DNA from: Chiloscyllium plagiosum
Taxonomy: Eukaryota
Reading direction: 5' to 3'
Length of the DNA: 64,000 nucleotides
NCBI RefSeq assembly: GCF_004010195.1
Contig: NC_057719.1
Location: 37,816,547-37,880,546 of the forward strand
Under the pieces are notes generated by a model. The model worked only from the letters and a program-made list of their open reading frames with translations. It ran no database searches and had not been told where the DNA came from. Positions 2,169 to 55,235 of this stretch are shown in pieces (position 1 is the stretch's first letter; each line of letters starts with the position of its first letter). The translations under genes and the position numbers were made by a program.

Positions 2169-2376
2169 AGGTTTGAAAGCTCACTGTCTAATCTGATGTG
2201 CCAGCGTCCAGAAACCCAAAGAAAGAAGTGTTGCCGCCTTTCCTTGAGTGAACTAAGAAGGTGACCCTGGTCAATGTTTCAGAAAAAACAGTTGCCTGTG
2301 AACAATGCACCATGAAGGATATTTAGGTAATCAGTTTTAATTATGCTTCAACTTTGTTTATTTCTGTCTTTTGTGT

Positions 2377-2751
2377 CAGAAGTCACATGACACCAGGTTA
2401 TAATCCAACAGGTTTATTTGGAATCATAAGCTTTTGGAGTGTTGTTCTTTCATCAGGTGAAGTGGAGGGAGATGCATAGGCTAAATAACAAATTGTTGCA
2501 AATGACCACCCTGTCGACACTCCACTCACACCATTTGTACTATCTTTTGACACACTTAATTACCTGGAATTTTCTTGCAATGATCTCTCTGCCTATAAAT
2601 TTCATGTCTGTCCACTTCTCTCTGCTTCACCTGACGAAGGAGCAGCTGTCTGAAAGCTTGTGATTTCAGATAAAACTGTTGGACTATAACATGGTGTTGT
2701 GTGATTTCTGACTTTGTCCACCCCAGTCCAACACTGCACCTCCACATCATG
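2377..2751. mobile_element. Fold-back PLE-derived insertion (family 2) with an 11-bp TSD
   Basis: Inverted arms at about 2375-2474 and 2605-2712, tail 2713-2751, TSD gtcttttgtgt at 2366-2376 and 2752-2762. Homologous to 53943-54187. Confidence 0.8.
2628..2662 (+). ncRNA. Putative minimal type I hammerhead ribozyme
   Basis: cac-CTGACGA-aggagcagctgtct-GAAAGCTT-gtg: stem I cac/gtg, AGCT palindrome, stem II partly decayed. Confidence 0.55.
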
Positions 2752-3074
2752 GTCTTTTGTGTGAATGGTGCTGAAAACAAATGTTTTGGGTTTAAAGCAT
2801 AGACGTGTCAGCTTACCATGCTGATTACATTTTCTCTCTGCTAATGTTAGTTTGTATTTAATAAATTGTTAAGTCTTTTGTTTAAGATACAAAACTGGTG
2901 TCTAGAAATTAATTATTCACAAAATCTGGGATTGGTTAATCAAAAGTCTAGTTAGGACCTGTTGGAGTGACTATTTGGGAGTCTTCAAAAGTTTAATTTT
3001 TCTGCATTGTGAATACAGAGGTATAAAATATCCTTTTGGTTCTGTCTCTGTTTTATAACAAGTCAGTTTGGAAA

Positions 3075-3434
3075 TCATAGAATCATAAAATCCATGCAAA
3101 AAGAGATCATTCAGGCCATTGAGTCTGCATGGTCTGAAGAGTATCCCACTCAAATCCATCTCCCCCATCCAGCCATATCCCTGAAACCCCAGATTGTTTT
3201 TTATTTTACCATGACTAATCCACTTAAACCACATCTCCCTGAACACTACTGGGTAATTTTTCTAGCATGACCAATCGACCTAACCCACACATCTTTGGAT
3301 GTGGGAGGAAACTGGAGCAGCCCCACAGAGACATGAGGAGAATGTGGAAACTCCACATACAAATGCCCAAGATTGGAATCGAACCTGGCTCTCTGGTACT
3401 GTGAGGCAGTAGCGCTAACCGCTGTGTCACCACG
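3075..3434 (-). mobile_element. HE1/V-SINE-type SINE, diverged
   Basis: Reverse complement is similar to 631-946 in head, core and tail. Confidence 0.8.
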
Positions 3435-4469
3435 TGTACAATATTAAACTTTTTTCATTATGCTTTATTGAATTAAGTTTTTTTTTCAACTTTAACCAGA
3501 ATGTCTGAGACCTCGTGCTTGACTATCTTGCTCTTCCTCTGTGATATCATTCTCCCCAATAATGCTATTGGCACATTAATAGTTTCATACTGAATTTAAA
3601 TTGATACTCAAGTCAGTAAGTATAATGTACAGATCTAAAACAAATGCGCACAAACTACTATACTTGATTTCAAGGGGGTCAGGTTGGTGATTCCTTGTTC
3701 TGTGGCCGAGTGCCATATTTTTGTAATTATATATTTAAAATAACAGAAGAAGATATGAAATTATTGGCCTAAATTTGCTTTTGTCTTTACATTCTGTTTC
3801 CGTATAATGTTCTTGGGTTTCTTCAGGATTTCCTTTTTTTTTTCCTTTTTCAAAGGCATGACAATGCAAAATCAGGTTTCTTCTGGTTAGAAAATCAAGG
3901 ACTAGAGGTCATAATCTAAATATTACTGCCTGGTTTTCTTTAGGAGTGAAGTTCAGAAGCATATTCAAAGGGTACTAGGAGCTTGGAATACTTCTGTAAA
4001 TGTTCAGTTGTTCATTTTAAATCCTAGGATTGTTCATTTTGTTTAATCCAAAGGTGGTTATAGGACAAAGTCAATGTGAATTAGGACACGCAAATTAGGT
4101 AGCTAATAAGCAGAATTATAGCACACACTCCAATGTCTAAATACCCTTTTTCTGTTTTGGTTTGGTTCTTGAGGTTTTTTTTGTAACTTCCATCTTCATG
4201 TGCGTGTTAATTTGATAGTTCTTATACATATAAGATTTACAAGTACAAGATATTATTTTCAAAATTCAGATGGACATTGACAATGTTAAGCTATCACCTT
4301 CAGCTTTTTTTAAAAAGATTCAACGATTTGACAATCACTTCAAGGCAAAGAAGGGTAAAATATTGTTTAAAATACTGTGAATAGAGGCCGTCCTGAATCT
4401 CCAGATTCTTTTCCTCGGAAAGTTTCTAAATCTGATGTAAACTTAATGCAGATGTAATTGCCTTTTCAG

Positions 4470-4916
4470 GAGTGCATTCACAATTAAACTCCCCGCTGAC
4501 AGTCAGCTCCAGGGAATCAGTTCAAGAAACAGTGATTGCAACAGACTCAAAAGAAATGCGAAGTGAAAATAAAACTTCAGAAACTGATCGGTTTGAAGCA
4601 CACCATTCGTCGTCTTCAGAACTTGAGCCAAATTTGAGTTCAAAAAACGAAATGGAAAGACATCCCTGGGACGAGACAGGAGAGGGAAGACATTCAGAAA
4701 CAAGTGAGCCAAGGAGCAGAAGCAGCTCTACAAACAGTGGTATTAGTGTTTTTAGCCATGTAACATCTCCGGAACAGCAGATAGGAGCAATTTCCTCGCC
4801 TGTAGGATTAACAAAGATTTCAGATTCTGCAGAAAGATTCAGAACAATGAACATGGAAGAATTCAACCAACAGCTCATTGTTGTTCCTGTAAAAAAGAAG
4901 AAGAAACGCAAGCAAG
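4470..4916 (+). CDS. TECPR2: TECPR2 internal coding exon A (447 nt; phase 1 in, phase 1 out)
   Basis: Acceptor ccttttcag|G, donor CAAG|gtat. Encodes SEPRSRSSS...EEFNQQLIVVPVKKKKKRKQ, matching the recalled human TECPR2 motifs SEPRSRSSS and EDFDQELVVKPIKVKRKKKKKK. Confidence 0.88.
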
Positions 4917-5183
4917 GTATTTTTTTAATATAACCTTTTCCGCCAACTCCAAACAGACCCCACCACCAGGGATATATTTCCCTCCCCACCCCTTTCCGCC
5001 TTCCGCAAAGACCGTTCCCTCCATGACTACCTGGTCAGGTCCACGCCCCCCTACGACCCACCCTCACATCCTGGCACTTTCCCCTGCCACCGCAGGAACT
5101 GTAAAACCTGTGCCCACACCTCCTCCCTCACCTCCATCCAAGGCCCTAAAGGAGCCTTCCACATCCATCAAAGCTTTACTTGC

Positions 5184-5323
5184 NNNNNNNNNNNNNNNNN
5201 NNNNNNNNNNNNNNNNNNNNNNNNNNNNNNNNNNNNNNNNNNNNNNNNNNNNNNNNNNNNNNNNNNNNNNNNNNNNNNNNNNNNNNNNNNNNNNNNNNNN
5301 NNNNNNNNNNNNNNNNNNNNNNN
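5184..5323. other. Assembly gap (140 N)
   Basis: Run of N. Confidence 0.99.
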
Positions 5324-5471
5324 GGGAGGGGATGAAGGTGTTAGGTCAGGGAGGAGAGGGTGGAGTGGATAGGTAGAAAAGAAGATAGGCACCCATTGTA
5401 CTCTATGCTACTTTCTCCCCACCCCCACCCTCCTCTAGCTTATCTCTCCATGCTTCAGGCTCACTGCCTTT

Positions 5472-5508
5472 ATTCCTGATGAAGGGCTTTTGCTCGAAAC
5501 ATCGATTT
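5472..5508 (+). ncRNA. Putative minimal hammerhead ribozyme, slightly mutated
   Basis: ttc-CTGATGA-AGGGC-TTTT-GCTC-GAAACATC-ga. Confidence 0.55.
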
Positions 5509-6282
5509 CGAAGCTCCTTGGATGCTGCCTGAACTGCTATGCTCTTCCAGCACCACTAATCCAGAATCTGGTTTCCAGCATCTGCAGTCATTGTTTTTAC
5601 CTCTTTGGCTTTATAACCCTTGTTGACTTCATTAATCTAAATTAAGGGTTATCTAATTTAAATATGCAAACCAGCACTGAGGACTTCAATGATAATTTGC
5701 AAAAACCTGAAGTGATGCTGTTGATATTTAATGACAGCCATCAAATTGGCATGCAACTTTTCAGAGTAGAATCAGATTTACTGCCTGCTAATTTGGACAA
5801 TTACAAGGCTATATTTCTAAGGTGGTTCTGCTTATTAATCTAATTATAATAAAAATAATGTGACACACATTCTCACAACTTGAACATTTTGGTGGGAAAC
5901 ACTGGAAAAGTGGTTGGAAAATTGATAATTGGATGGCATAAGTTTACTATCATGAAGAGAGAGAGAGAGAAGTTCAATTTTATTTTAAACTGGTTTGGAA
6001 TTGCTCTGTTCAAATATAGTAATGTGATCCATAATTTGGAGAAGTGCACATAATGCCATGGAAAATTTTACAGCATTGTTCTAGATGAATATGGTTTCTG
6101 TATGATGGAAGGAATTTTTTTGGCTCATTGAGGATTTTATTTTAATTAATAATTTGTAATACGATGCTGCAATTATATATTGTAGTTACAGGTAATGTAA
6201 AATTGCTTTTTGATCCGATTTTCTGTTTTCCTGCTGCAAAGTGTCTCTGTTTATGAATAATTGCATGTTGTTTGTCATACAG

Positions 6283-7304
6283 CAAGTTCTGGATCTGAAG
6301 GCAGTCTTGTAAAACATGAAATTGACTGTTCCAATAGTTCCCAAAGTTCAGAGCCAGCACTGTTGAGTGACTTTGCTTTTGATGGCTCCATAACCACAAC
6401 TTGTGACTTGTCTGATCAAATGAGTTTGTTGAGCAGCAGCCTGGATCACTTGATCACTGATTTTTCTGAACAAGAGAGCCAGATTGGTACAGAATTGGAT
6501 ACTTTTTTGCAAGAGGAGAGTAATTCCAATATTTTTGGCTCCATACAATCTCCTGAGTGTACATCAACATCACAGGATGACCATCTCCCATCAGACAGTT
6601 TAGCAGAATCTTTGAAGACTGCAACTACAATGAATGAAAATACATATTCCTCTGATTTACATTTTGCAGAATGTTTAGATACTGTATCTTCTGTCAAATT
6701 GGAAACTTTAGACAGTTCCTGCAATAAAAACAAAGACTGCAGAGGCGAGGTTTCAGTGTCAAGTTCTGAACCAGTACTTAGACAACAAGCAAATTTAGTT
6801 AACACTATGTTTGATGTGGTTTGCAACAGTGAACCTTTGGAATTAAGATCTCGAGATCCAGAAAAATCTGTGTTGTCTGGTGGCCTAAATTTGCAAGGAT
6901 CTTTAAGTGAAAGCTCAGAGTCTTTCTTGGATGAGCGTCATGCACTACTGATGAGAATTCTTTCACCAGACAAAGATCACAACAGACAAGAAATCAATGC
7001 ATTTTCACAGTTATGTGTGTCATACAATGTACCCAATTTATCAGACAGAACTGAATCTCCGCAACCTTTTGAAACTGTTTGTTCAGTTGATAATGCTATC
7101 ACTGACGAAAAGAAAGTCCAACAACAACTTTCATCTTCCAGTGATGATGAGGATATTTATGGCCATGGAGGACCTCCTTCATTATCTGAAACCAGTGTGA
7201 CTGAACACATTCTCACTTCTGATGCTGAAAAATCACAAGGTTCAGTTTTTCAAGATCTGAATACTTCTGTTTCAGATGAAATGGAGCTTTTAAAATCGGA
7301 TCAG
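6283..7304 (+). CDS. TECPR2: TECPR2 large coding exon B (1022 nt), Ser/acidic linker
   Basis: Acceptor tttgtcatacag|CA, donor CAG|gtgaag; lies within ORF 6261-7337. Phases match the neighbouring exons. Contains SSSLDHL..SEQES and SSDDEDIYGHG..SETSV, similar to human TECPR2. Confidence 0.9.
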
Positions 7305-7457
7305 GTGAAGCAAAATCTATATTTGTTTTTCTTTTAATGTTTACTCTTGAAATTAAAAATTCATAAATTACATTTGTTCTATTTTTAATTATCATCTGTT
7401 CTTTAATGTAACATGTTACCAAAGAAAAAGCAGTTGGCCAGGTAAGCACATGACATT

Positions 7458-9769: not shown

Positions 9770-9845
9770 TGTCGAGAGCTGAGGCAGGAATTGAACCCAG
9801 GTCTCTGGTGCTGTGAAGCAGCAGTGCTAACCACTGTGCCACCAT
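9770..9845 (-). mobile_element. HE1-type SINE head fragment
   Basis: Reverse complement of ggtggcacagtggttagcactgctgcttcacagcaccagagacctgggttcaattcc. Confidence 0.75.
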
Positions 9846-9849
9846 AGAA

Positions 9850-10545
9850 CACACCAGATGGCCTCCTCCTTCAAAGATTGTGATTTCCCTTCCCACGTGG
9901 GCGACAACGCCCTCCAGTGCATCTCCACTTCCCGCATCTCCGCCCTTGAACCCCACTCCTCCAATCACAACAAAGACAGAACCCCTCCAGTCCTCACCTT
10001 CCACCACACCAACCTCCATTAGAGAGACAGGGCACCAACTTGCGAAATGTTTAGAGAATATCTCTGGTACACTCACACAGAACAAACCCACCATCCTGTG
10101 AGTGAACACTTTATCTCCCCCTCCCACTCCGCCAAGGACATGCAAGTCCTGGGCCGCCTCCACCACCAAACTCTAGCCACCCAATGCCTGGAGGAAGAAC
10201 GCTTTGTCTTCTGCCTTAGGACCCTCCTGCCACACGAGATCAATGTGGATTTCATCAGTTTCCTCAGTTGCCCTCCCCCATCTTGTCCCAGATTTAACCT
10301 TCCAACTTGGCACTGTCCTATCTTGCTTCCCACCTTTCCACTTCATCCTCCTCTCTGACCTATCACCTTCACCCCAACCTTCATCTACTTATTGCATTCC
10401 CAGCTACCTTCCCCCTCCAGCCCCACACCCCTCCCATTTATCACACAGCCCCCCTTGGGCGACTCCCTCATTCCTGATGAAGATCTTATGCTCAAAACAT
10501 TGACTGTTCTGCTCCTGTGCTTTTCCAGCACCACACTCTTCAATC
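9850..10545 (+). mobile_element. Penelope-like element remnant with a GIY-YIG endonuclease C-terminal region
   Basis: IRETGHQLAKC/FREYL...PVSEHFISPSHSAKDMQVLG...LEEERFVFCLRTLLPHEINVDF, then a pyrimidine-rich UTR and a decayed hammerhead (CTGATGA at 10474). Confidence 0.8.
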
Positions 10546-11529
10546 TGGGTACATAATCTTAGGTTAAAAAGTAAAAAAATAAAGAAATAAGTTAAAAGGT
10601 TTATTGTTAGTTCTTGTCAGTATAAAGTAGTAAATAAGAAATTAAAATTTTGTTGTACATTTTTTGTCATACAGTAAATCTCAAAATATTTTTTCTCTTT
10701 ATTTTCAATTGCTTCTTCCTGCTAGCCCTTTTCTTCCCATCGGCTTTCAACTCTTCATTGTTGCTGTCTGTGTTTCGAGCCTTTTTTAAAAAATCTGTGG
10801 CAGTGTGTACAAAGCCACTTCAGTACCATGTGCTTGATAGAAGGCTTTCATGTGATGTTCCCTTCCAAAAATATTTAAGATAAATACAGCTAATGTCATC
10901 GAGTTTCTATTTAAAACTGGATGAACAGAATGTGTTGATCGTGGTAAGTATCAACTTGCCATTTACTGGAATGAGGGGGAGAATGGTGGCAGCACTTAGT
11001 ACTAAGATGCACATTGAGGTATTATACTTTCTGGGGAAGTGACAGAGATGCATAATTGTTGCATAGGAATGCAGGTATTTTATAGTATGGTTTATAGAAT
11101 ATAAAAGTCATGGTATATAATTAATTTATATAGAATTCTTCAGTGCTGTATGCAGTTTTCGGCTTCACCTCATAGGAAGGATGTTGATGCAAAGGTGCAG
11201 CATAAGTTTTTTTAGTCTGAAGAAATAACCTCAAAAAGAAAGACATAAATTTTGGAGCTGTTTGGAGAAATGGAGATTGAGGTGGCGTGATTGACTGCAA
11301 AATATTGGGAACAAAACAAAAATAACATATATCTTGTAGGAGAGTTGTGAAACTGGAATACAGTATCAAAGGTGACGATTGAAATGGAAACTATGTTGAG
11401 TTTTAAGAACATTGCTAAGAAAGAGACAGAACTTTGCACCTTCCATTCATCAAAACTGAAAAACAAACAAAATGTTTTTATTTTGTGTTGTCCTCCTCTT
11501 CCCTTTCATCATTGGTGAAGTAGCCAACA

Positions 11530-17610: not shown

Positions 17611-17647
17611 GCAATAGCAATAACAAGATGTGATTTTTAAGGCGTAA

Positions 17648-17768
17648 TAAAATAATGCAGGTGCTGGAAATCTGAAATAAAAAATAAGAAGTGCTAGAGA
17701 AACTCACCCAGTCTGAGAGAGAGAAAAACAGCTGATGTTTTCAGCCTGATATGACTTCTTCAGAACTC
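17648..17768 (-). mobile_element. Old PLE-terminus-like repeat (family 3)
   Basis: Similar to 2068-2168 and 49320-49447; ends ttcttcagaact (reverse complement agttCTGAAGA). Confidence 0.55.
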
Positions 17769-18209
17769 ACAGATCTTTACGCTGTTAAAATTTGGCATTA
17801 TTGCAGTTATCCTGTTGAGTACAAAATGGACAGCTTTGGTAGCATGTCAACAATATTCAAATTCTGTACAAGCAGTCTCTGTTTTATAATATTTGAAGTG
17901 GGTCTAAGTCTTTTTCGCTCAATCTTTTATAAGTGTGTACGATTTAATCAAAAACAGGACATTGCAACTTTTTCTCTGACATTGACCAAATCATTTTGAA
18001 AAGCATCCAGATATTGATGATGATTGAGGAGAAGCGTTGAGTCAGTTGCAATAACTAAACACATTAGGTGCATCCTGAGAAGTTGTCATCTTGCACATTT
18101 GCGTAGTCAGATTGGTTTTCTAGCTCAAACTTTTTAAAACAGAGTGATACTTATTAGCAACTTGAATGTATATAGTGCCATTACCTAGTAAAATGAAAAC
18201 AAAAACTGA

Positions 18210-18775
18210 CCTGCATATTGTGTTTTTCATGACTTTCAGCCATCTCAAATCACTTTTCAAAAGTACTTAAATAAAAGCAAAGTACTGTACATCTAAAATA
18301 GGAACATAAATTATTGAAGAAACTCAGCAGGGTCTGTGGAGAAACAAATAGCCTTTTGAATATAGTGTAATTCTACAGTTCCAAAGAAGAATCTTATAGG
18401 ACTCAGAAGTGTTAACTCTATATTTCTCTCCCGATGCTGTCAAACCAGTTGTTTTTCTCCAGTACTTTTTTATTTCAAAAATCTTCATTGCCTGTACGAT
18501 AGAAAACACAGCAGTTAATTTACATGCAGCACGGTCCCACAATCAGCAGTGTGATATTGATCAGATGGTCTCTTTTATGTGATGTTGATTGAAAGATAAA
18601 CATCAAATAACCTCATTATTCCTCACAATAGTTCTGCGAGATCTTTTACACGTACCTGAGCATCATCTCTTCCAAAAAATGGCACCTGTAACAGTGCAAC
18701 CCAGGAGTGTCAGTCTTGATTATTATGCTCAAGTCGTGGAGTTGGACTCTAATCCGGTACATTGTGTTCATAAGG
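18210..18775 (-). mobile_element. Deu-domain SINE (SacSINE1/AmnSINE-like), interrupted at about 18270-18480 by an old fold-back family 3 insertion
   Basis: Matches 62068-62382 and the reverse complement of 44705-45108 (gatcttttacacgtacctgag; cccacaatcagcagtgtgata). Confidence 0.65.
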
Positions 18776-38758: not shown

Positions 38759-41290
38759 TATAGGGCAAATTGGGGAATTGAGTCGGGTTGGAAGACTGTT
38801 AGTTAATGAGGTAAATTAGATTAAAGGATCCATCAATTGAGATGCTGTGGCAGGCACTTGAGGGGTATTTTAAAATATGCAGAATAGATATTAGGAGCAT
38901 CGGATTCTGGTTTGTGGGGCATTGGCACCTGTGCTGGGAAAGTGAGGTCTCAGCCAATGTGATAGTCTTGTGCTGGGCCAGTATTCTTGCCACCCATAAG
39001 ACTATGGAAGTAGCGATGGGGCAAGAGGTGAAATTTGGAAAGATGTGATCTATCAAAGAGCAGATCCAAGGCCAAAGAGAAAGTTATTTATAAGGGACGA
39101 GGTAAACCAACCACGATGGGGAGGGAAGTAATGTGTGAATCTCAGAGTAATGCGTCAGATAAGATGAGAATTTGCAAAGAGTAAAAGTAGAGGCAGTGTA
39201 TCATTACACACACAGCATTGAAAGCAAAACAAATTAACTGAGAGCACAAGTGGAAATGAAATGAATAAATATGATCTGATAGCCATCCCAGAGATATGGC
39301 TGCAGCATGACATGGATTAAGATCTCAGTATTGAAGGGTACAGGAAATATAAGAAACTAAGAAAAGGTGGTTCTGTTAGTTCATGATGGAATTAGCATAA
39401 CGGAAAGGGATGACCTGTGTTCAGGAAAGCAGGATATGGAAGTAGTTTGGCTAGAAATCAGAAATGATAAAGGCAAGGATTAACTTGTGTGAGTGGTGCA
39501 CAAGACCACCTAATAGTAACCATATGGTAGGGTGGAGCACAAAGGAAAAAATAGTGAGAGTTTAGCAGAAAAACATCATGATAATTATGGAGATGTTAAT
39601 TGATACATGGACTGGAAAATTCAAAGATATCTTGGTGAGTTTGTGGAATATCATTAGGATAGTTTCTTAAGGCAGCATGATCTCAAGTTGACCTGAGAGT
39701 AGACTATTTTGCATTGAGAGAGGATTAGTTAATGATCTTATAGTGAAGGCACCTCTAAGTAGCAGTGGCTATAATATAGTTGAATTTTATGTTCAGTTTG
39801 TAGATAAGAGGTGTGGGTTTGAAACTATTCTTTAAAACTTAACTAAGGAGAATAAAAGATCTTAAAAGCAGAACAATGAGGTAGGTTGGCAAGTTAGGTT
39901 AAAAAATACATCAATCAAAATGCTGTGGCAGGCACATGAGGGGTATTTTAAAATACACACGAATAGATATTATACACCTGAGTAAGAAATATTTCAAGGG
40001 ACAGACCGACTATCTGTTAGTAACTAGAAATTGTCAAACATAGCACCAAATGAAGGAAAATCATTTAATTATGCAAAGACAAGTGGCAAGTCAAAAGATT
40101 AGACAGAATATTAAACAAAAAACACAAACAGACCAAAAAATAATTAGAAGGCAAAGCTATCCAGAATTATAACAGTCATTCAATGAAAATAGTTAACAAA
40201 ATGAACGTTCTATGAAAAGTGAGATGGATAATTAATAAGGAAACTTGGAGAATTGGCAGATAAGTGGAATGGGTATTTTGCATCAGCCTTTACGATCGAA
40301 GATATCACGAATAGTGTTAAATCAAGAAGTAGAAGGGAAGGGGGAAGGACCTCAGGAAAATCACAATCACCATAGAAGCAGTATTGAGTAAATTGTTGGA
40401 GCTGTAGACTGACAAGTGCCTGGATTCTGATGACTTTCATCCGAGGCTGTTAAAATAAGTGGTTACTGAGATAGTTGATGTATTGGTTTTAAGTTTTCAA
40501 AGTTTCCTTGTTTCAGGATGTTCCCATTAGATGGAAGATTGTGAGTCCATCTCCTTTATTCAACGGGAAGGAAAGGAAGAGAAAGCAGAAAACTTAAAGT
40601 TAATGAAATTAACATCTGTCATCGACAAAATGTTAGAAACTATTAAAAAAGGCTACAGCAGTACACTTGGATATGTTAAAGGTAATGAGGTAGAGACAAC
40701 ATAGTTTGTGCAAGTGAAGTTTTGTTTGACCAGTCTTTTGGAGTTCTTTGAGGAGCTAAAACCTACTGTTGATAAAGAGGAACTAATGGATGTGACGTGC
40801 TTTGATTTCCGGAAGGCATTTGATAAGGTACTGCATCAAGGCTATTGCAGAAAATAAAATCTCAAAATGTAGGGAGTGACATATATTAGGATGGCTAGAA
40901 GATTGGCTAACAGGAAGCAGAGTAGACATAAATGGGTCGTTTTAAGTTAAGCAAGATGTAAAGAATAGTGTGACACAAGGATCAGTGCTGAAATCTGAAC
41001 TGTTTTCAATTTATACTTACATGAAGAGACAGAAGGTGTGGTTGCCAAATTTGCTGATGAAGCAAAGGTAGATAGCAAAATAAATTGTGAAAAGGATACA
41101 AGGAGGTTAAAAAAAATAGCGGTAGGTTAGGTGAGTGAACAAATGTATGGAATATGGAGTATAATGTATGAAAATGTGAACTTGTCCATTTTGGCAGGGA
41201 GAATAATGAAACAGCATATTATCTAAGTGGTGAGAGATTGCAAAACTCTGAGATGCATAAGGATTTGGGTGGTCTCTTGCATGAATGACA

Positions 41291-41520
41291 AAAGTTGAAA
41301 CTTTATTGCTGGAACAGCACAGCAGGTCAGGCAGCATCCAGGGAACAGGAGATTCGATGTTTCGGGCACAGGCCCTTCTTCAGGAAAGGACCTTTCCTGA
41401 AGAAGGGCCTGTGCCCGAAACGTCGAATCTCCTGTTCCCTGGATGCTGCCTGACCTGCTGTGCTGTTCCAGCAATAAAGTTTCAACTTTGATCTCCAGCA
41501 TCTGCAGACCTCACTTTCTC
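41291..41520. mobile_element. Fold-back PLE-derived insertion (family 1b): 99-bp inverted arms, 31-nt tail, 16-bp TSD
   Basis: Palindrome 41291-41489 centred on 41390 with one mismatch; TSD catgaatgacaaaagt at 41280-41295 and 41521-41536. Confidence 0.92.
41394..41427 (+). ncRNA. Minimal type I hammerhead ribozyme motif, intact core (mirror copy on the - strand)
   Basis: ttc-CTGAAGA-A-GGGC-CTGT-GCCC-GAAACGTC^gaa: stem I ttc/gaa, ACGT palindrome, predicted GUC cleavage after 41424. Confidence 0.72.
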
Positions 41521-42334
41521 CATGAATGACAAAAGTAAGGTACAACAAGTAATTCGGAAAACTAATAGAATGTAATAATTTTTTGAGAGAGAAATTGATT
41601 TCAAAAGTAGAGAGGTTAGCTTCAGTTAGACAGAGCACTGATGTGACCATGTCTGGAGTACTGAGTACAGTATTGATTACCTTATTCAAGGAAGGATTTA
41701 CATACATTGGAGGCAGTTCAGGGAAGATGTATCAAACTGATAGTTGGAATGAGTGGGTTGTCTTATGAGGATAAGTTGGACAAGCTAGGCTTGCATTTGA
41801 GTTTAGCAGAGTAATAGGTGACATTATTGTAACACGAGAGAAGTCTTGGCATGGTAGATGTGGAGAGAAAGCTTTACAAATGTCAGTGTTACAAAATAAA
41901 TGTCATCCATTTAAAACTGAGAAGAGATTTTTTTCTCAGAGGATTTTGAGTCTTTGGAACTCTTCCTGAAAAGATGTTGGGTTCATAGATCTTGAATGTT
42001 TTTAAGCCAAAGGTAGCCAGGTTCTTATTGGGCAAGTGGGTGAAAGGTTATTAGAGATTAGTGTAAATGTGGATTTGAGTTTACAATTAAATGAGCCATG
42101 ATCTTATTGAGTGGTGGAACAGAGTTGAATTTAACATTCAATTTCAGAGGCAGGAACTTGAGTCAGAAGCAACACTGCTAAGCTTGAATAGGGTTTTACA
42201 AAGGAATGAGGGCAGACTTGGGTGCAGTGGATTGTGAAAGGAGCTTAGCAGCAACGATAGTTCAGGAACAATAGCAGATATTGAAAAAACAAATCCGTTA
42301 AATGGCCTGTTCCTCTAGTTTGTATGTTCTGTCT

Positions 42335-42860: not shown

Positions 42861-42889
42861 ATATTACATGCAGGTTTACCCTCAAGATT

Positions 42890-45108: not shown

Positions 45109-45594
45109 TATTTTTAAAAAGAAGCATGCTTAAATTACTGCATGCAATCTACATCAGCCATACCAGTACAACTATGAAATACTTCTTAGAGACACTAGTT
45201 TAGTGATTTCCTTTTTATGTCAGTAAAAATGCATCATGTTTCAACATCTCTGCTTTATAACACAGTTATATTTACAAACCAATTCACTCTATGCACATAG
45301 TTGAAAAAGCATTCCAGAGACAAATGGAAAGAATTTGTCGTTGCTGAACCATGATGCTGCTGATGGAATGTTAACCTTGAAATATTTAGCTGTATGCAGC
45401 TTTTGAAATGCTGCTTCTGGCTAAGTCATATGAAATACTATACAGTATAATGATAGCTATTCTAGTATTTGTACCATGATACTTCTGTCAGTGTGGTGAA
45501 AGTTCTTTTTTGTCTCTTAAACTGTCTGTTCCTGTAGCAAAGCTTATTATTTAAATTGAAATTTAAATTGCCTCTGTTCAGTGAACACTGTCTA

Positions 45595-46400
45595 AATTAC
45601 GTTATATTGAGAAAGTAGTGGTGAGCTGCTGCCCTGATCTGCTGCAGTCTTTGGAATGTAGGGGCATCTGCAGTGCTGCTGGAAGGGAGTTTCAGGATTT
45701 TTACCAGCATTAGTGAAGGAATAGTGAAATTTCGACTCAGAATGGTGTGTGGTTTGGAGGGAAACTTACAGGAATTCCCATGCGTCTTGTCCTTCTGGTG
45801 GTAAAGGTTGTGAGCTAAGAAGGTGCTGTCAGAGGAGCTTTGGTGAATTACTGTGGTGTGTCTTGTAGACAGAACACTGTATGTTGATGGTGAAAGGGAT
45901 GAATATTGGAAGGTAGTGGATGTGGTACCAATAAAGGGGGTGTTTTGTCCTGAATTGGAGCTCCTTGTACGTTCTTGATTTGTACCATGCAGCCAAGTGG
46001 AAATTATGCCATCATATTCATGCCTTGTGCTTTGTAGATGATAGATGAGTAGTGGGGATCCAGGAGCTAAAATATTCTCCACAGAAGTCCTAGCACCAGA
46101 CCTGCACTCGTAGCCATGGTATAGAGTAGATCCAGAGGTAAAAACAATGACTACAGATGCTGGAAACCAGATTCTGGATTAGTGGTGCTGGAAGAGCACA
46201 GCAGTTCAGGCAGCATCCAAGGAGCTTTGAAATCGACGTTTCGGGCAAAAGCCCTTCATCAGGAATAAAGGCAGTGAGCCTGGATCCAGTTCAGTTTCCA
46301 GTCAGTAGTAACCCCTAAAATGTTGACAATGGGTTTTCAACATATAATACCATTGAACATCAAGAGTATTCTCTCTCATTGGAGATGGACATTATCTAAT
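45595..46400 (-). mobile_element. LINE family B fragment hosting a PLE-terminus insertion
   Basis: Reverse-complement similarity to 22080-22750. Confidence 0.7.
46134..46282 (-). mobile_element. Short PLE 3'-terminus insertion (family 1a) with an intact hammerhead core
   Basis: Nearly identical to the reverse complement of 5456-5604; reads CTGATGA-AGGGC-TTTT-GCCC-GAAACGTC. Flanked by gatccag at 46129-46135 and 46283-46289. Confidence 0.85.
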
Positions 46401-47190
46401 ATTGTATTCTTCTTAGTTTATCTTTACGCATTCTTTGCTCCCCTTTGGGGAAATTGGGGAAGTGGTGGAAGAATTCATTGGCCATGGAATAAGAATTCAT
46501 TTGGCCTAGAAGTCCGGGTGGGGATGGAACACAGAACTTCTGGCTGAGACAGATACTATCACTACTACAGTACCTCCAAATAAAGTATATTGAGCTGAAC
46601 ATATCACCCTGGCTTTCTACAGAATTCAAATAAGTCTGCCTTATCAACTACTCTCTACATCTCTACGAAAGATGGTTATTTGCAGTATGAAGTTAACTGA
46701 TCTTTAGTCTCTAACATCTAAGATATGTTATTTCCAAGGAAAACTGAAACTACATCAAAGCATTTCTTTTCAGGAATATTTTTCATCCTACTTCAAATAG
46801 TTCCTTTTGTCTGCTAGGTGCAAGTACTATTTGTGGGGCTTAGCTGTTCTAGCTATAGTGAAATGATGGCACAGGTAATTCTGCAGATAATCATTGTTTT
46901 AGGTTATACTTGTCCATATCCTTTAGTTTCCTAAACATTTGCTGGAGCCTTAGGTAGTTGGTGAAAATAGAGCAGAATAAAATGATGCAGGTTAACAACT
47001 GCATTTGCTTTCCTCTCTCACTGTCACTTTCGCTGTCAATTTTTCTCTCCTGCTTTGAGATTTAACTTCTCTCCAGCATTTAATATCACTTCCAACTATG
47101 TTTCTTATCTAAAACTTCAGTGCTAAGTGCTTTATTTTCAGATGCAGAATTGCTGCATTCTGTGTGACTAAATATTTTTCCTCTCTTCAG

Positions 47191-47339
47191 GCAGTATAAA
47201 ACTATCAAGCTTAGCATGTGGAGGGCAGCACGTATGGGCTTGTGATGTTGATGGAATTATTTACTTCCGCGTGGGGACACAACCATTGAACCCCAGCATG
47301 ATGCTTCCTGCTTGGATAACCATTGAGCCGCCAGAACAG
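47191..47339 (+). CDS. TECPR2: TECPR2 exon J (149 nt); the next exon was not found in the window
   Basis: Acceptor ctctcttcag|GC, donor CAG|gtaagc. Translates (G)SIKLSSLACGGQHVWACDVDGIIYFRVGTQPLNPSMMLPAWITIEPPEQ. Confidence 0.96.
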
Positions 47340-47709
47340 GTAAGCACCTAAAATATATATCTATCTTCATTTTGCTTATTATAGCAAAGGATGTCTGTAA
47401 TGGGAACTGAACTGCTTCTGCACTTTGGAAACCCAGCATTAAGAATATCTAGCTTATGTGTAAAGGTATGTGTCAAATTCATTGTTGACTACTCTAATAT
47501 TACACCTTAACAAAAAAAAATTCAATAAATACATCGGTGTCATTTTTTTAACTTCCCAAATTAGCCCTGTTTATCATTTCTCAGTCACTCGTCATTAGGG
47601 AAAGTTTTGCACTGCACTGAGAAGCTCCAATTGCATTTCTTCTGAAAAAATGAGACTCCACACACACACACAGCTATTTGCAGGATCATTGAGCTTGTTC
47701 AGCAGTAAT

Positions 47710-48360
47710 TATCATAGTGCCACAGAACTGTTACAGTGCAGGCTGAGGCCATTCGACGCATCATTCCTGCACCAGTTCTATTACCTTGTGCCAATCTGCT
47801 GTATTTTCCCCATATCTCTACATACTATTCCTACCCAAATAATCATCCAATGTCCACTTGGATGCTTCAATTGGACCCGTCTCCATCACATTTGCAGGCA
47901 GTGCATTCCATACCTTAACTACTTACTCATATCACCCATGTTGTCAATTTGCTACATTTGCACATCACTTTAAGCCTGTGCCCTCTAGTTCTTTTCTTCT
48001 GATATGAGCAGGAAAAGTTTCTTCCTGTCTATTCTATCTGGCCCGTTCATGATTTTGAAACCTCAACCAGATCACCTCTTAAGGAGAACAGTCTCAACGT
48101 TTTCAATCTATCCTCATAATTAAAGTTGCCTATTCCTGGAACCCATTCTTATAAATTACTTCTGCGTGTGCTTCAATACATTCACATTTTTCTGTAATGT
48201 GCTGCCCACTCTGTACACAATACTTCACCTTGTAATTTCAATACCACCTCGTTGCTCTTGTATTCTATACTCCTATTAAAGCGGAGGACACTATGCTTTA
48301 TTAACTGCTTTCTCCACCTCTTATGCCACCTTCAATGAGTTCCGTTCATATGTACCCATC
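47710..48360 (-). mobile_element. Old CR1 3' fragment
   Basis: Degenerate reverse-strand CR1 3' UTR and ORF2 end. Confidence 0.65.
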
Positions 48361-48480
48361 TCCTACTGCTCATGCACCTTTAAGAAGTGTACTCCTTATA
48401 ATTTGTAGGAAATCTCTGTTGAGCTCTGTTGCATTTAAAAGGAAGGTACAGAATTACAAGGGAGAAGGGTGTAGAGTCAT

Positions 48481-48702
48481 AGAGGTAAAAACAATGACTG
48501 CAGATGCTGGAAACCAGATTCTGGATTAGTGGTGCTGGAAGAGCACAGCAGTTCAGGCAGCATCTAAGGAGCAGCAAAATCGACGTTTCGGGCAAAAGCC
48601 CTTCATCATTCCTGATGAAGGGCTTTTGCCCGAAACGTCGATTTCGCTGCTCCTTAGATGCTGCCTGAACTGCTGTGCTCTTCCAGCACCACTAATCCAG
48701 AA
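48481..48702. mobile_element. Fold-back PLE-derived insertion (family 1a): 90-bp arms, 38-nt tail, TSD
   Basis: Arms 48519-48608 and 48613-48702, loop ttcc, one mismatch. gtagagtca duplicated at 48471-48479 and 48704-48712. Confidence 0.9.
48609..48642 (+). ncRNA. Minimal hammerhead ribozyme motif, intact core
   Basis: tc-CTGATGA-A-GGGC-TTTT-GCCC-GAAACGTC^ga. Confidence 0.68.
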
Positions 48703-48703
48703 A

Positions 48704-49292
48704 GTAGAGTCACAGCATCGTAGGGATGTACAGCACAGAAACAGTCCCTTCGGTCCAACCCGTCCATGCCGACCAGATATCCCAAACCAATCTAGTCCCC
48801 CTTGCCAGTACCTGACCCATTTACTTCTAAACCCTTCCTATTCGTATTCCCATCCAGATGCCATTTAAATGTTGCAATTGTACCAGCCTCCACCATTTCC
48901 TCTGGCAGCTCATTCCATACCCGTACCACTCTCTGTGTGCAAAAGGTTGGCCCTTAGGTCCCTTTTATATCTTTCCCCTCTCAGCCTAAATCTTATCCCT
49001 CTAGTTCTGGACTCCCCCCTCCCCTACCCCAGAGAAGAGACTTTGTCTGATTCCTGAAGAAGGGCTTATGCCCGAAACGTCGATTCTCCTGTTCCCTGGA
49101 TGCTGCCTGACCTGCTGCGTTTTTCCAGCAACACATTTTCAGCTCTGATCTCCAGCATCTGCAGTCCTCACTTTCTCCACTTTGTCTGTTTATCCTATCC
49201 ATGCTTCTCTTAATTTTGTAAACTTCTATAAGGTCACCCCTCAGTCTCCGATGCTCCAGGGAAAACAGCCCCAGCCTATTCAACCTCTCCTG
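48704..49292 (-). mobile_element. CR1 3' fragment, interrupted at 49050-49178
   Basis: NRLGLFSLEHRRLRGDLIEVYKI plus 3' UTR. Confidence 0.9.
49050..49178 (+). mobile_element. 129-bp PLE-terminus insertion (family 1b) beginning at a hammerhead motif, with a 10-bp TSD
   Basis: attc-CTGAAGA-A-GGGC-TTAT-GCCC-GAAACGTC; TSD actttgtctg at 49040-49049 and 49179-49188. Confidence 0.9.
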
Positions 49293-49319
49293 ACCTAAAC
49301 AGTCTGCTTATATATAATA

Positions 49320-49530
49320 AATCAAAGAACTACCGATACTGGAATTCTGAAACAAAAACAGAAATTGCTGGAAAACTCAGCAAATCTGGCATAATCTTTG
49401 CAGAGAGAGCAGAGTTAACATTTTAAGAAGGTGAGTTCTTCAGAATTGATAGTAGCAGTATATAAAGGTGGTATATAAGCTGAAGACAAGGAGTGGGAGT
49501 GTGGGGAAGGAGTGAATGAATAGGTGGCAA
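49320..49530 (-). mobile_element. Old PLE-terminus-like repeat (family 3)
   Basis: Similar to 2068-2168 (gctggaaaactcagc...cagagttaacatttt...ttcttcagaa), plus a purine-rich extension. Confidence 0.55.
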
Positions 49531-50479
49531 TGGAGTCCAGAAGACCTGCATCTGTACTTTGAAATTTTATTCCATTCTAATTCCTTAGCCTGGTCAATTT
49601 GCTACTTGTTCCCTCTTGTTGTATATTGCTTAGATTTAAATAGCAACACAGAGTGAGTACAGTGATGTCACTGATTGCATTTGAAGCTGTGAACCATAAT
49701 TTATTTTTCCAACGTTCCATTCTTTCATTTCCCCATACTAAAATCCACTTTTCTCATTGCTTGAGATCAGTAAGTATTGTCTCATTTGGAGCTGTGATTC
49801 CATAAGTGCAGTTTTTTTTGTGTGTAACCTTAGAGATTTGGGTAGCCTGTTTGACTGCAAAAAGTGAGCACAGTTTTTACCTTTGCCAGCATCGGTATGC
49901 ACACTTTACAGTAGAGGATTGTAAATGTGACCCAAATGATAGAACATAAAGACTGGTGGATTACTTTTCCCATTATCAAATTCAGGTCACTGAGGATAAT
50001 TGTAGCTTCTGCTATATTTCACTGGTTGAGATCAATTAAATTTACTACAGAGAATAGGTACTTTTTAAATTTATATCATTTACTGAAACTCTGAATAATT
50101 TACTTTGAAGGATACCCTAAAGTCTATTTTTAAAGCTTAATATTAAAATAAGCCTGTTCGTGAGTCATATTAAAGTTCAAACCATACTTAGAGTAAAATA
50201 TTCATACTGAGGACCAAATGGTATTCCTGATAGCTTTATTTAGAAACAGCACTGGCATTGTTTCACAACGCAAGTCCGCAAGTTGGCTACATTGAAGATG
50301 GTATGGAAATCTATGTCACTTGTAAATGTAACTCTTACACCACATTTTGTCCTAACTACTGCATGGCTTTGTAACTGATGCAAGTGATTTTCAGTACACC
50401 TTGGGTTTTCTGCACCTGTACAGATCAACTTTATCCAGAGTAACTGTTGCAAAGTTAATTAAGATTGTGGATCTCAGAC

Positions 50480-51665
50480 TGAATAGGGTAAGCCACCTGC
50501 ATATAAGAAATAAAAATTGTTACAAATGGGGTTCATAAAGTTCCGGTAAGGGCTATAATGGAAAGCGAAAGACAAGGGTTTACCCAAATTCAGGCAGCAC
50601 TGACACCTGATGAGAGATTAGATTGATTAAGACTGCATTGTGTTACGACAAGAGGTAAACCCTCCTGCTTAATTTAAACCAGCAACATGGAAAAGATCTA
50701 CCCTATGTAGTAACCTGTGAAAATTCGAGAGGCCAAGAACTATTTAACGTAAAAATTAACAACTTCTTAAAGTATAATAAAGAATAATCAACTAACAACT
50801 ATTTACAACTCTAACCTATCTTTTACTTTCCCTTCTATAATATTAGTCTGATTAAAACCCAAGATTAAGATTTACCAAAAATTTAAATTTTCAAAACCAG
50901 CCAGATGTCGAATCTTCACTTATATCTTCCTCAGTCTTCTTTTCTTCTTCTTAGGGATTACTGTTTCACAGGTTACTGATCAATAAAGGACCTTTAAGAG
51001 AGCTATTCTCCGAGCAGTCTGCAGATGCTGGTGGCTTAGCAGTTCTCCTCCCAACTGTTCAACTTTCTCCGGTCTAATACCCCCAAAGCATCTGATTGTG
51101 TCATTGGCTTTTAAGATTGTCAATATACTAAATTCAACTTGATTGGAGTTTGGTATTTTTGGGGGTATAAATTAAATTGATTGGCCTAATTCAAATTTGT
51201 TTTGTCTCCAGGCAACCAGCTACCCTGGCTGCTGGACCACATTACATTCTATCTTGTTCAGAACATTTGGTGCTGTCAGGTAGTTCTGCTCGCTTTTAAC
51301 TCTCTTAAAGGTACAGTGCATCCACATCTTCATGATGATTGACTCGAGTTTAGAAAAATGAAGGAGCTTAAAAAATCGTTTAAAATTCTAACAGACTAGA
51401 TAAGGTAAACACAGGAAAGATGCTCCTGATGACCAGCGCGTTCAGAATCAGGGCTCGCAGTCTAAAAATATGTGGTGGGCCATTTCGGACTTAGATGAGG
51501 AGAACATTCTTCTCCCAATGAATGATAAGTCTGTGGAATTCTCTGCCACAGAATTCTCTAGAGGTCTAAAATTTGAATGTTTTCAAGAAGGTGTTAGATG
51601 TAGTAGTGATTTGGATCATCAGATCGAATGGCAGAGCAGGCTTGAAAAGTTGAATAACCTGTGCT
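50480..51665 (+). mobile_element. Old CR1 3' fragment split by a solo LTR
   Basis: gattaagactgcattg|LTR|actcgagtttagaaaaatg resembles the LGL.SLEFRKM region. Confidence 0.7.
50641..51337 (-). mobile_element. Solo LTR, same family as 20225-20922, with a 4-bp TSD ATTG
   Basis: Starts tgttacgaca; attg at 50637-50640 and 51338-51341; reverse-complement homology to 20225-20922. Confidence 0.85.
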
Positions 51666-53942
51666 TCTCTGGATTTGAGGAGATTTTGCGTTAAGAAAAC
51701 GACAATGAGAAGATAGTGAGAGCTGATGTATGGTTAATCTTGCATGGTTTCCGTTGCAATTATTCATGGGTACTATTTCTGGCCCACTGCCTTAGCACAA
51801 TATCAGTGGACATGAGGTTAGTTTCTATATTTATACCAAATTTATCCCACTCTGTCTCATCCTGGCATTTCTACTGCTCCAAAACAGAAAAACACTAAAG
51901 AATGAGAAGTGACCAAAACCCACTCAGAGCTGATTTTCTTGTTTGAAGAGTCTTTAAGAATATTGATCTTCTGATAATATTTATCAAAGGTACTAGACTA
52001 ATTAGTTAAACTCCTTGTGAGCAGCTGTTTACAACCATTAATATCCAAATTTGAGTTCCTAAATTATTTGTATCAACATTTCAGGCAATATTAACATTAA
52101 TGCTTCCCAACTTCCTTTCATGTTCCATACAGACTCTTAAACAAATAAAATTAATTATTTCTTGGTAATTTATTGAAGTCAGCCAATATTCAGGAACTAA
52201 AGTTAGAATCATAGCTGTTGTTAATGTAAACATTGATTAGGAAAATAATTAGGTTCCGAAGGTTTGGTTGCAGTGATTCGGCTTTAACTATTAACTGATG
52301 GACAATCTGCAGTTGAGTTTTAAGGTGAATATAAATTGGTGAAATTAATATTAGATTGAAGAATTGATAACAGCACTAGATAACCAGAATATTAAATAGA
52401 TTAAACCCTATGTGTTAGTAGTTAGCAATGTTAGCAGAGCTTCTGTGACCTGGTCTTTATGAGCTGATGTGGTTGAGTGGTATTAGCCTTCTGAGACATT
52501 ATAGGTATGAACCTCTATTAGTGCTAGATTCCCTGCTTCTAGCTAAGTTTGTCTTATGCCCTGGTAACCATATTTGAACTAACTACCTTAAATTTCACAT
52601 TTAATTAATCTTTTTGACTGGGGAAGCTGTACAATCTTAACATATGTGATCTCCCCACCCTTAGAAATGCACATTCCTATTTTAGACATAGCTGCCCATA
52701 TAACCAAAGTAATACAAGCTGAACCAGAAACTGAAGATGCAACTTCACTGTCAAAAACATTATTGTGCTCATATACAATTTCCAAATTAAATTCATCATT
52801 TGTCTGACATATTGGAAGAGTTCAATGCTCTTGTGCCAATTACCTTACAAAGTCCTATTCATAACCATCCAGATAACATCAGATTAATGTGACACCATAA
52901 CTTGGATATGCCAGATTACTTGTTCATTCCTTGCATCAGGCCTTTGCGAAGAAACAATCTCCAGTCTGTAATTATGATTTTAATTTTGTTGTACCTAAAA
53001 TTACCTTCCAGCACGTAATCTTCAGCATTGTAGTCAGAGGTGATATTGACAACTATGATCTGGCAGACTAACTAAGCATTTGCTTTGTAAATGACCTTTG
53101 TAAGATTAAAAGTGCCATTCTGAAAGTAGGTTGAGAAAACTGGCCCCTTGCATTATCTAAGCATGCATTGTGTATGATAATTTTCATTAGGTTTTTCTTT
53201 CAGTTCAAAACTCAACTTTCGAGTGGTTTTTAAAAATTTACCATATTGTTGATTATCTCAAGTGATGAATTGTAAAGCTAGACGTTTTTCATGAAGCTCT
53301 TGGACTTTAGATCTGTGTGAAGTTTTGTGTCACCTAGGAAATATTTTGGGGTCTTGTAACAAGGTATGTCTATGAGTGGACATGTAGAGTCCTTACATGC
53401 ATCAACAGGACCGTCTAGATGTTATCTAATATGTAGAGTGCTTAGGAGTGCCATTAGGATCGAACAATTGCTCCTAACTTAAGAATGCTGTACAGTAAGA
53501 CTTGATCTATATTCATCCAGGGTTCATTTATTCTAGTTAATTCAGTATTTTATGGACAACTTTTACATAGTAAAATAGTCAGGCTGTAATCATCCTTTCA
53601 TAATTTAAAAAAAAATCTCAAATTCAAATGTCAGGAATTGATTTGAGTGGATTTGTCAATAGGGAACTTCAGAAGTAGTATTTATGATTGAAATAAATAG
53701 AAGTTTGTTTATTTGCAACATTGATAAATATCAAAATGTTTTTAAGTCAAGATAAGTAAGTCTTGCAGCAAATGAGTGAACTCCGTCTCTGCGATAAAAA
53801 TAACTAAAAGTAATTCAATAAAACTGCAAACTTCTTGGCTATTTGAGTGCTCCACGGAAAATAATCCATGCATTCTAGTCTCACACATTTTGAAGGCCTT
53901 TCGTCCACAAGGCATATTTAGTAGCACGTTGCTTTTAGAACA

Positions 53943-54187
53943 TGATTTGGAGATGCCGGTGTTGGACTGGGATGTACAAAGTTAAAAATCACAACAGGTT
54001 ATAGTCCAACAGGTTTAATTGGAAGCACACTAGGTTTCGGAGCGACGCTCCTTCATCAGGTGATAGTCCTTCATCAGGTGACTATCATCAGGACTATCTC
54101 CTGATGAAGGAGCGTCGCTCCGAAGGCTAGTGTGCTTCCAATTAAACCTGTTGGACTATAACCTAGTGTTGTGTGATTTTTAGCTTT
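53943..54187. mobile_element. Fold-back PLE-derived insertion (family 2) with a 12-bp TSD and two hammerhead-like motifs
   Basis: Arms 53978-54070 and 54090-54187; TSD gcttttagaaca at 53931-53942 and 54183-54194. CTGATGA-AGGAGC-GTC-GCTCC-GAA..CTAGTG occurs on both strands. Confidence 0.9.
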
Positions 54188-55235
54188 TAGAACACTTTTT
54201 CCACCTACGTAAGCTGGAATTCTTCTATTGAAGGTAATTATTGTGTAAATGTGTAACAGTCAGCATGTGACAGCAAGTTTTCAAAGGGAGTATCGATGTT
54301 TTTGTTAGGAAAATTCTCTTCACTGAGATTTTATTACATTTATGGCAGTTTCTTATCTGTAGAAAATCTGTTGTACTGAATGAGCCATCAGTTCACAGTC
54401 CCAATTAATCCTGGTTTTAGCACACTATGATTTATTTCTTTTGGAAAACAAAATCAAGCATTACACTGGAGACAAGAAAAAAATTGTCCGAGAAGCAAAA
54501 AAGGAAATATGACAAGTTAAATAATCAAATTCCCTTCATCCTAAGGCCTCAACGGTTTACATGGGCTTAGAACTAAACAAAACAACACAAGTCAAATATT
54601 TTGCTAAGCTGATGCTACTTGAATGTAGTCCACACTCCTTATGGCCATGGTGGTTTGTTTGTGATTTGAAACCGTGCAACTTCATTACATGTTCAGATTT
54701 CGGATCTTTCTTGGCACATGCTAATGCATCAACTAAATAATGCAATGCTAAGGGAAGTATAACCAAGTTACCAAAAGACTAGATGTGACTATTTTATTGG
54801 TTGTTTGTATTCATTCTGATCCTGTAACTTTGTTTCACTGTGTTTAGAACAATACTTAGATTAAAGCAGCATCTCCCATTCTGACCCACCCTGAAAGCCC
54901 ATGAATTATTTTCTGGTGCACAAGTCATTGCAAAATAGTTAGACTTTCCTTGGCGGTCTGTAGTTGTAAAAGAGGGGTAGTTTGCTCTTATATGCCTAGA
55001 TGTAACTCCAGACCCACAGCAATACAGTTGATCCTTAACGTCCTCTGAAATGGCCAAGTTAGCCACTGCAAAGAAGTCAAATTAGAATAAAACCAGACTT
55101 TAACTTGGACACAGAAAAGATAATGGCAACCCCACCTAGCTGACCTGCAAATTCCTCCTCACTAACACCTGAGGATTTGTACCAACATTGAGAGAGCTGT
55201 CCCATAAACTAGTGAAGCAACAATCTAACAGAAGT

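Follow-up and report, generated by a model that had tools for sequence, protein, structure and literature searches.

Head-to-head terminal modules of Penelope-like elements in a shark genome and their possible origin by twin priming

Insertions of Penelope-like elements (PLEs) carry a published signature, which combines an inverted 5'-truncated copy, a one-sided tail of 30-40 bp and short target-site duplications (TSDs) (PMC8557442, PMC3846280). The origin of the tandem and inverted structures of PLEs was called still undefined (PMC8557442). A PLE protein in vitro cut and extended both strands and started at two sites bounding the tail (PMC11167929). We analyzed a single 64-kb window of the shark Chiloscyllium plagiosum (contig NC_057719.1, positions 37,816,547 to 37,880,546), in which 12 insertion events with six inverted junctions were found. 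The insertions are almost certainly short terminal modules (hammerhead, stem and tail) of endonuclease-bearing Penelope-like retrotransposons. The layout itself is already published for PLEs and is not new (PMC3846280, PMC8557442, PMC11167929). Our best model for its formation, to which we give even chances, is twin priming at two fixed sites, run-off of both complementary DNAs (cDNAs) and their head-to-head joining.

Layout and identity of the terminal modules

The events were collected by profile searches and follow-up within the window, and weak profile matches above an E-value of 0.4 were discarded. A to D denote the four loci of the initial annotation in order (2377-2751, 41291-41520, 48481-48702 and 53943-54187) and E to L the additional copies from the present analysis. 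Module positions are counted from C3 of the hammerhead core, set to 0; site 1 is the tail end and site 2 the tail-less end. Five events are TSD-bounded head-to-head pairs (A-D and L); E is an inverted junction next to a gap, and the remaining six (F-K) are linear. The pairs consist of the following parts.

A, left TSD: 2366..2376, plus strand; 11 bp, final 2 nt overlapping the tail-less arm
A, inverted tail-less arm: 2375..2480, minus strand; C3 at 2456, outer end +81, inner end about -14 to -25
A, spacer: 2481..2607, no strand; AT-rich hexamer at 2594-2599 (-37 from C3)
A, tailed arm: 2608..2751, plus strand; C3 at 2631, 9-bp stem of +46..54 with +94..102
A, right TSD: 2752..2762, plus strand
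B, left TSD: 41280..41295, plus strand; 16 bp, within an old remnant of a long interspersed nuclear element (LINE), final 5 nt overlapping the arm
B, inverted tail-less arm: 41291..41389, minus strand; C3 at 41383, inner end -6
B, tailed arm: 41390..41521, plus strand; begins at -7, C3 at 41397
B, right TSD: 41521..41536, plus strand
C, left TSD: 48471..48479, plus strand; 9 bp, one additional base at 48480
C, tailed arm: 48481..48608, minus strand; begins at +1, hence without C3
C, tail-less arm: 48608..48702, plus strand; begins at -4, C3 at 48612, TSD overlap 0
C, right TSD: 48704..48712, plus strand; one additional base at 48703
D, left TSD: 53931..53942, plus strand; 12 bp, overlapping the tail end by 2 nt
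D, tailed arm: 53941..54067, minus strand; reaches -8, C3 at 54059, 5 nt deleted compared with family reads
D, centre: 54068..54092, no strand; 25 nt, short pieces of the hammerhead 5' edge, re-copied in both orientations
D, tail-less arm: 54093..54182, plus strand; begins at -8, C3 at 54101
D, right TSD: 54183..54194, plus strand; 54184-54187 match the family sequence, 54183 mismatched
L, old head-to-head insertion: 18255..18480, no strand; 8-bp TSD at 18255-62/18473-80, tail-less arm on the plus strand, 3-5-nt overlap, centre at the core

At all four loci A-D, an arm without the tail lies inverted next to a complete terminus between TSDs, as the initial annotation had described. The inverted arms are complementary over 105 nt at 77% (A), 99 nt at 99% (B), 90 nt at 99% (C) and 80 nt at 94% (D). 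The TSDs that enclose each pair are exact (11, 16, 9 and 12 bp in A, B, C and D), in agreement with the claimed 9-16 bp, and are rare among 3000 random boundary pairs, of which 6 gave at least 9 bp and 2 at least 11 bp. The part missing from one arm, previously put at 30-40 nt, measures 39-41 nt in A, 32-37 in B, 38 in C and 37-42 in D, a range of 32-42 nt. The claim of four different families went too far; by sequence likeness, A-D fall into two groups, B with C (77-79%) and A with D (77-80%). The inverted junctions of L (18255-18480) and E (5390/5391) had been overlooked. All arms of A-D cover the minimal hammerhead core except the tailed arm of C, and the core is decayed in the left arm of A. 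Arm homology in A fades near -25, and 128 nt of spacer lie between the arms; no donor for this spacer was found in the window, and against the upstream sequences of E, H and J it gave no alignment beyond that of shuffled sequence. TSD lengths across the copies span 7 to 16 bp. No convincing TSD was found for H, J or K, and a 7-bp candidate 8 nt off the end of E was left uncounted.

Reads from 4 of 22 listed runs were compared over 41000-54400, a region outside which A, E, H, I, K and L lie. Among these reads, no long read spanning a whole palindrome was found. This could speak for assembly artefacts or chance juxtapositions of two separate insertions, as could the differences between the two arms of A, at 20 of 96 positions. 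That explanation is nevertheless very unlikely. One exact TSD pair encloses each arm pair, the arms carry private changes, and the left junction of D is present in contigs of two organisms, labelled organism B and organism C. The differences between the arms of A are mostly transitions (16 of 20), as ageing gives.

The linear copies and E are located as follows.

E, C-type module: 4936..5603, plus strand; preceded by a piece of a PLE open reading frame (ORF), a gap of N letters at 5184-5323 and an inverted piece of the untranslated region (UTR) at about 5329-5390
F, linear tailed stub: 46129..46289, minus strand; 7-bp TSD, begins at -20/-17
G, linear tailed stub: 49040..49188, plus strand; 10-bp TSD, begins at -4
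H, long linear tail-less copy: 9840..10547, plus strand; broken pieces of the thumb and the GIY-YIG C-terminus, 3' UTR, hammerhead with C3 at 10474
I, linear tail-less stub: 2064..2178, minus strand; 7-bp TSD, begins at -7/-6, 3'-end overlap of 5 nt
J, decayed tailed copy: 49320..49500, minus strand; probably continues further upstream
K, decayed tailed copy: 17645..17770, minus strand; 5' end not placeable

In E, the inverted 3' UTR piece is joined head to head with the tailed arm far from the hammerhead, after the gap of 140 N, and this inversion may have caused the assembly gap. The first 7 letters of the target are identical in L and I, a hint that this subfamily may prefer certain targets or pairings.

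The assignment to PLEs rests for the B/C group on E and H, because these two copies tie the module to an ORF for reverse transcriptase (RT) and the GIY-YIG endonuclease. The ORF piece of E shares 90% identity with P0001, an annotated protein of Chiloscyllium punctatum; the module of E, which belongs to the subfamily of C, is separated from this piece by the gap. In H, the thumb and endonuclease pieces are 62-70% identical to P0001 and the related P0003, and are linked without a gap to the 3' UTR and the same type of module. The GIY-YIG match of P0001 in Pfam scored 21.7 bits against a cut-off of 22.6 and its RT match was likewise below the cut-off, and P0003 passes that of RVT_1. A Pfam search of the short ORF pieces themselves gave no match. 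A tblastn search with three proteins across the window matched only at E and H, and no match ties in the A/D group, for which the layout alone points to PLEs. P0001 carries a Cys-rich linker before the endonuclease, which we take to suggest the Neptune rather than the Poseidon clade.

The ribozyme is predicted to be a minimal type I hammerhead with an additional base after A9, a G-C closing pair and a palindromic helix III, and the same minimal layout was described previously (PMC4209133). An Rfam search of the window returned 13 sub-threshold matches, mostly microRNA hairpins, and no hammerhead family. Loci from a pattern scan of viral contigs (1 and 0) and metagenome contigs (20) were dismissed, since all 21 match over only 18-32 nt, as expected by chance. 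A miniature inverted-repeat or other non-autonomous DNA transposon was rejected on the unpaired tail at one end and the TSDs varying from 7 to 16 bp. A non-LTR retrozyme was rejected as well, since no head-to-tail hammerhead tandems were found and the only tandem repeat found in the window is one of 14 bp. The insertions of 210-375 bp correspond to the end module alone.

Inner ends relative to the hammerhead

The hammerhead is predicted to cut after +27 or +28. The inner or 5' ends lie at -7/-6 in B, -4/+1 in C, -8/-8 in D, -4 in G, -7/-6 in I, about -4/+4 in L and -20/-17 in F; the other ends lie at about -14 to -25 (inverted arm of A), -85/-157 (junction of E) and about -630 (H). An end at -4 to -8 is thus present in 6 of the 12 events (B, C, D, G, I and L), and a start at the predicted cut in none. 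In B, C and D, the inner ends are placed more tightly than the claimed distance of about 30 nt from the hammerhead, and the predicted cut is 26-36 nt downstream of them. For the clustering of 5' ends, a crude uniform null gave about 1e-5 to 4e-5; it was computed on B, C, D, G and I, optionally adding F, for a range picked afterwards and with A, E, H, J, K and L omitted.

Self-cleavage of the hammerhead might be thought to fix the breakpoint, since the breakpoints gather around the motif and young copies retain the core letters of the predicted hammerhead. This is highly improbable, because in B, C, D, F, G and I the core is retained and the copies begin 26-48 nt upstream of the cut, and self-cleavage was dispensable in vitro (PMC11167929). 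The initial annotation had let reverse transcription stop near the ribozyme; the tie of the breakpoints to this region stands, whereas a stop at the ribozyme cut does not, as the copies traverse the motif and end 4-8 nt upstream of the core.

The start of linear stubs at the same -4 to -8 positions suggests that the RNA 5' end lies there, and the copying stop would then be the 5' end of the transcript. Run-off at such an end agrees with Drosophila Penelope, in which an intron with its end at helix I lies downstream of the start site (PMC2377424, PMC4209133). A, E and H carry an AT-rich hexamer that begins at exactly -37, about 30 nt before the ends at -4 to -8, and in J one begins at -34; the background is 1.7% per 8-nt window. 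The hexamer could be a branch point rather than a TATA-like box. An acceptor-like AG fits the start of F, not the ends at -4 to -8. The clustered starts fall on an A, which is ambiguous in B and I, and their context resembles what we assume to be the initiator consensus of polymerase II.

In the centre of D, breaks recur at or beside -8. The base before each of the two sense restarts at -8 is a G, and the one after the antisense stop is a C (54067-54093), which could reflect either copying of an RNA cap or plain family sequence.

The tail-less end and the joining of two cDNAs

The 3' ends cluster at two places, +118 to +128 (A-G except the tail-less arms, and J, K and L) and about +81 to +99, where the tail-less arms, linear I and, with an internal deletion allowed for, linear H end. 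Because H and I are linear and end there, site 2 appears to be a start site, and the tail-less end looks like a priming site rather than the end of a folded-back strand. The TSD overlaps site 2 by 2 nt in A, 5 in B, 0 in C, 0 (strict) or 4 (loose) in D, 5 in I and 5 in L. The overlap previously noted at the outer inverted end in three cases therefore stands for A and B, and the 4 nt of D lie behind a mismatch. Under a null that draws the target at random and places the breakpoint within 5 nt, the summed overlap of 11 in A-D, scored loosely, gave P 0.003-0.007. For A, B, C, D, I and L, the sum was 17 against 4.7-5.5 expected (strict P 0.0004-0.0014); L, which was found after the null had been set up, gave P 0.011-0.023 alone. 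An excess above chance is thus probable, on few junctions and with decayed references for I and L. The earlier proposal that the target is joined by microhomology gains from the six junctions but not from the four original loci under strict scoring.

Downstream of the cut, the longest perfect stem of either group joins about +43..56 to +91..106, with differing letters. Its length is 9 bp in A and D against 7-8 bp elsewhere, and it lies 18-21 nt from the 3' end. Its likeness across the groups is one of position, not of pair count, as the groups did not align automatically downstream of the core. Site 2 falls within this stem or on its 3' edge. A small hairpin at site 2 in the B/C group has changes on both sides in three of four pairs (7 sequences from about three lineages).

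These ends can be accommodated by twin priming as follows. The GIY-YIG endonuclease would cut the target with a stagger of 7-16 nt, and one target 3' end would prime reverse transcription at site 1, the tail end at +118 to +128. The other target end would prime 32-42 nt inward at site 2, within the stem whose 3' strand lies in the tail, often aided by 2-5 nt of pairing with the RNA. If the complex sits on the 5' module copy of an uncut transcript, both cDNAs would traverse an intact hammerhead and drop off at the RNA 5' end, 4-8 nt upstream of the core. Head-to-head joining of their ends would follow, through an end-to-end template jump or host end-joining, leaving a 0-1-nt overlap (B, C) or a short templated filler (D). 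Use of a single site would give a linear stub (G, F, I), and priming on the 3' module copy would give longer truncated copies (E, H).

A single-strand fold-back would instead let the cDNA from the tail end snap back near the hammerhead, copy itself, stop 30-40 nt short and capture the target by microhomology. The near-identical arms of B, C and D, one subfamily each, agree with this, as do the centre of D, in which a nascent strand switched in both orientations, and that of C, which can be drawn as a 4-nt loop; an overlap at the outer end is likewise predicted. The tail-less arm of C, however, holds -4 to 0, 5 nt of family 5' sequence absent from the tailed arm, and the same asymmetry is seen in L at lower resolution. 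Fold-back in C would require that the tail-less arm was made first, or a later deletion. The centre of B, with 1 nt, is too small for a priming hairpin. Fold-back also leaves unexplained the linear copies H and I that end at site 2 and the two start sites observed in vitro (PMC11167929). We therefore regard fold-back as rather unlikely and favour two independently primed cDNAs because of the asymmetry of C, the 1-nt centre of B and the linear ends at site 2. The re-copies in the centre of D fit repeated template-end jumps under twin priming or fold-back. The initial annotation had a cDNA that "folds back or re-primes"; re-priming fits better, and plain fold-back is at odds with C and B. Its target-primed insertion and PLE origin are supported, and its view of the tail-less end as the end of a folded strand is not.

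Self-priming on an antisense template, as proposed for the palindromes of rotifer PLEs (PMC3846280), accounts for the head-to-head orientation and for the central palindromes. It is improbable here. The outer junctions are 3' ends of the sense strand, placed at two fixed sites and with TSD overlap, as priming on sense RNA would predict, and it is the sense strand that shows conservation of the hammerhead and the stem.

Several observations weigh against twin priming with run-off. The sample is small. A later deletion at the centre of the palindrome could yield the asymmetry of C, and the transcript start at -4 to -8 is read from the insertion ends themselves. The junctions of A and E lie away from these positions. 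Reads continue upstream of position -4 of G in 17,954 cases, with a loose-end agreement of 0.72 against 0.35 beyond the family 3' end, so that many genomic copies extend past the supposed stop. The set that defines the -37 motif was chosen after inspection, and its letters differ between the groups. At site 2, C has no overlap, and that of D lies behind a terminal mismatch, as the family reads A where the locus has G54183. The overlap of L is only 3 nt by its own tailed arm, and those of I and L are read against the decayed relatives J and K. Scored strictly, the sum of 7 in A-D is not significant (P 0.064-0.10). The stem length was reached in 5-67 of 300 shuffles, a modest excess, and folding of the whole module gave z-scores of -0.25 to -1.97. 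Finally, the in-vitro work on the Anolis Poseidon element PAc found no homology between the primer and the template start site (PMC11167929), in contrast to the 2-5-nt overlap at four of the six site-2 junctions (five if D is scored loosely).

Known systems, insertion sites and significance

Endonuclease-bearing PLEs with inverted pseudo-long terminal repeats share with the shark insertions the inverted 5'-truncated copy beside a direct one, the one-sided tail, the palindrome at the junction and the minimal hammerhead; rotifer TSDs are about 8-10 bp, while those of the shark reach 16 bp (PMC3846280, PMC8557442). The shark insertions also differ from the published ones in that they consist of the end module only, with inner ends 4-8 nt upstream of the core. 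PAc resembles the proposed shark route in its two start sites that bound the tail, the cutting and extension of both strands, the use of uncut RNA as a template and the initiation in a stem-loop; the available portions of that work give no route to head-to-head products (PMC11167929). The shark protein with its Cys-rich linker before the endonuclease differs from PAc.

Twin priming of L1 offers a likeness of mode: both nicks prime on the RNA, the second with the help of a short complementary stretch, microcomplementarity serves to join the cDNA ends, and a duplication arises once the first cDNA passes the second primer site (bioRxiv 10.1101/2024.08.27.596794). The second site of L1 is spurious and variable and poly(A) is used, whereas the shark site is fixed 32-42 nt from the first without poly(A), and the duplication takes in almost the entire arm. 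Another preprint deals with foldbacks at the scale of chromosomes and was not drawn on here (10.1101/2024.12.14.628481). The insertions were for these reasons not taken as L1 products: they have no poly(A), site 2 is fixed at about +81 to +99, and only the mode resembles twin priming. Non-LTR retrozymes are likewise short, non-coding and kin to PLE repeats, with a type I hammerhead, but they are head-to-tail tandems, while the shark stubs are head-to-head or single (bioRxiv 10.64898/2026.07.22.740005). No paper stating a twin-priming run-off model for PLEs was found, which is weak evidence, as most subscription papers and preprint supplements lay outside the search.

The insertion sites were compared with contigs of organisms B and C and with paralogues in the window. 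An empty site of F is seen in a contig of organism C, which skips 46128-46284. Just before the TSD of locus B, a contig of organism C departs from the reference, leaving 52 letters unplaced, and its successor begins at 41547, as would fit an empty site; departure of an organism B contig at 48482 fits an empty site at locus C. LINE paralogues give an empty site of G with a single TSD copy and a gap-free joint in three of four spanning matches, with a gap in the fourth. The same check of the B site gave one match, gapped, and the rebuilt site is about 8 nt shorter than the paralogue beside the TSD; no empty-site match was found among in-window paralogues for A, C or D. B, C and G sit in older LINE remnants (41280-41545, 48471-48830 and 49000-49260). 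At least 15 read joints were found over 41000-54400, mostly LINE-related among those listed. Read depth rises to about 62,600 over G, compared with a value of about 1 or less for unique flanks.

Open frames at 36810-37202, 6261-7337 and 4436-4933 resemble host exons, and the first shows a Hyd_WA propeller match and a weak tectonin match. The insertions are probably intronic in a TECPR-like (tectonin-propeller) gene, a name based on these matches. The copies are dead remnants. Two further inverted pairs were noted. The segments 42117-42296 and 43069-43222, about 800 nt apart in or beside a LINE remnant, form an inverted duplication of 93-96% that is not PLE-derived; 12519-12663 and 14092-14236 are an old inverted pair, 74% complementary, probably opposed LINE pieces.

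Because the families are very abundant here, a census of junctions could tell twin priming from fold-back, and the predictions of twin priming are testable in the existing in-vitro PLE system. We tentatively propose, with doubts that exceed our confidence, that the inverted repeats of PLEs are a programmed product, in which the conserved stem of the RNA sets two priming sites separated by the length of the tail, each target end primes there, and on the 5' module copy of an uncut transcript both cDNAs run off the cap just upstream of the hammerhead and are joined end to end. If this is true, the shark stubs, abundant as they are, would count as "strong-stop" by-products from which the promoter, the two start sites and the joining step could be mapped at base resolution.

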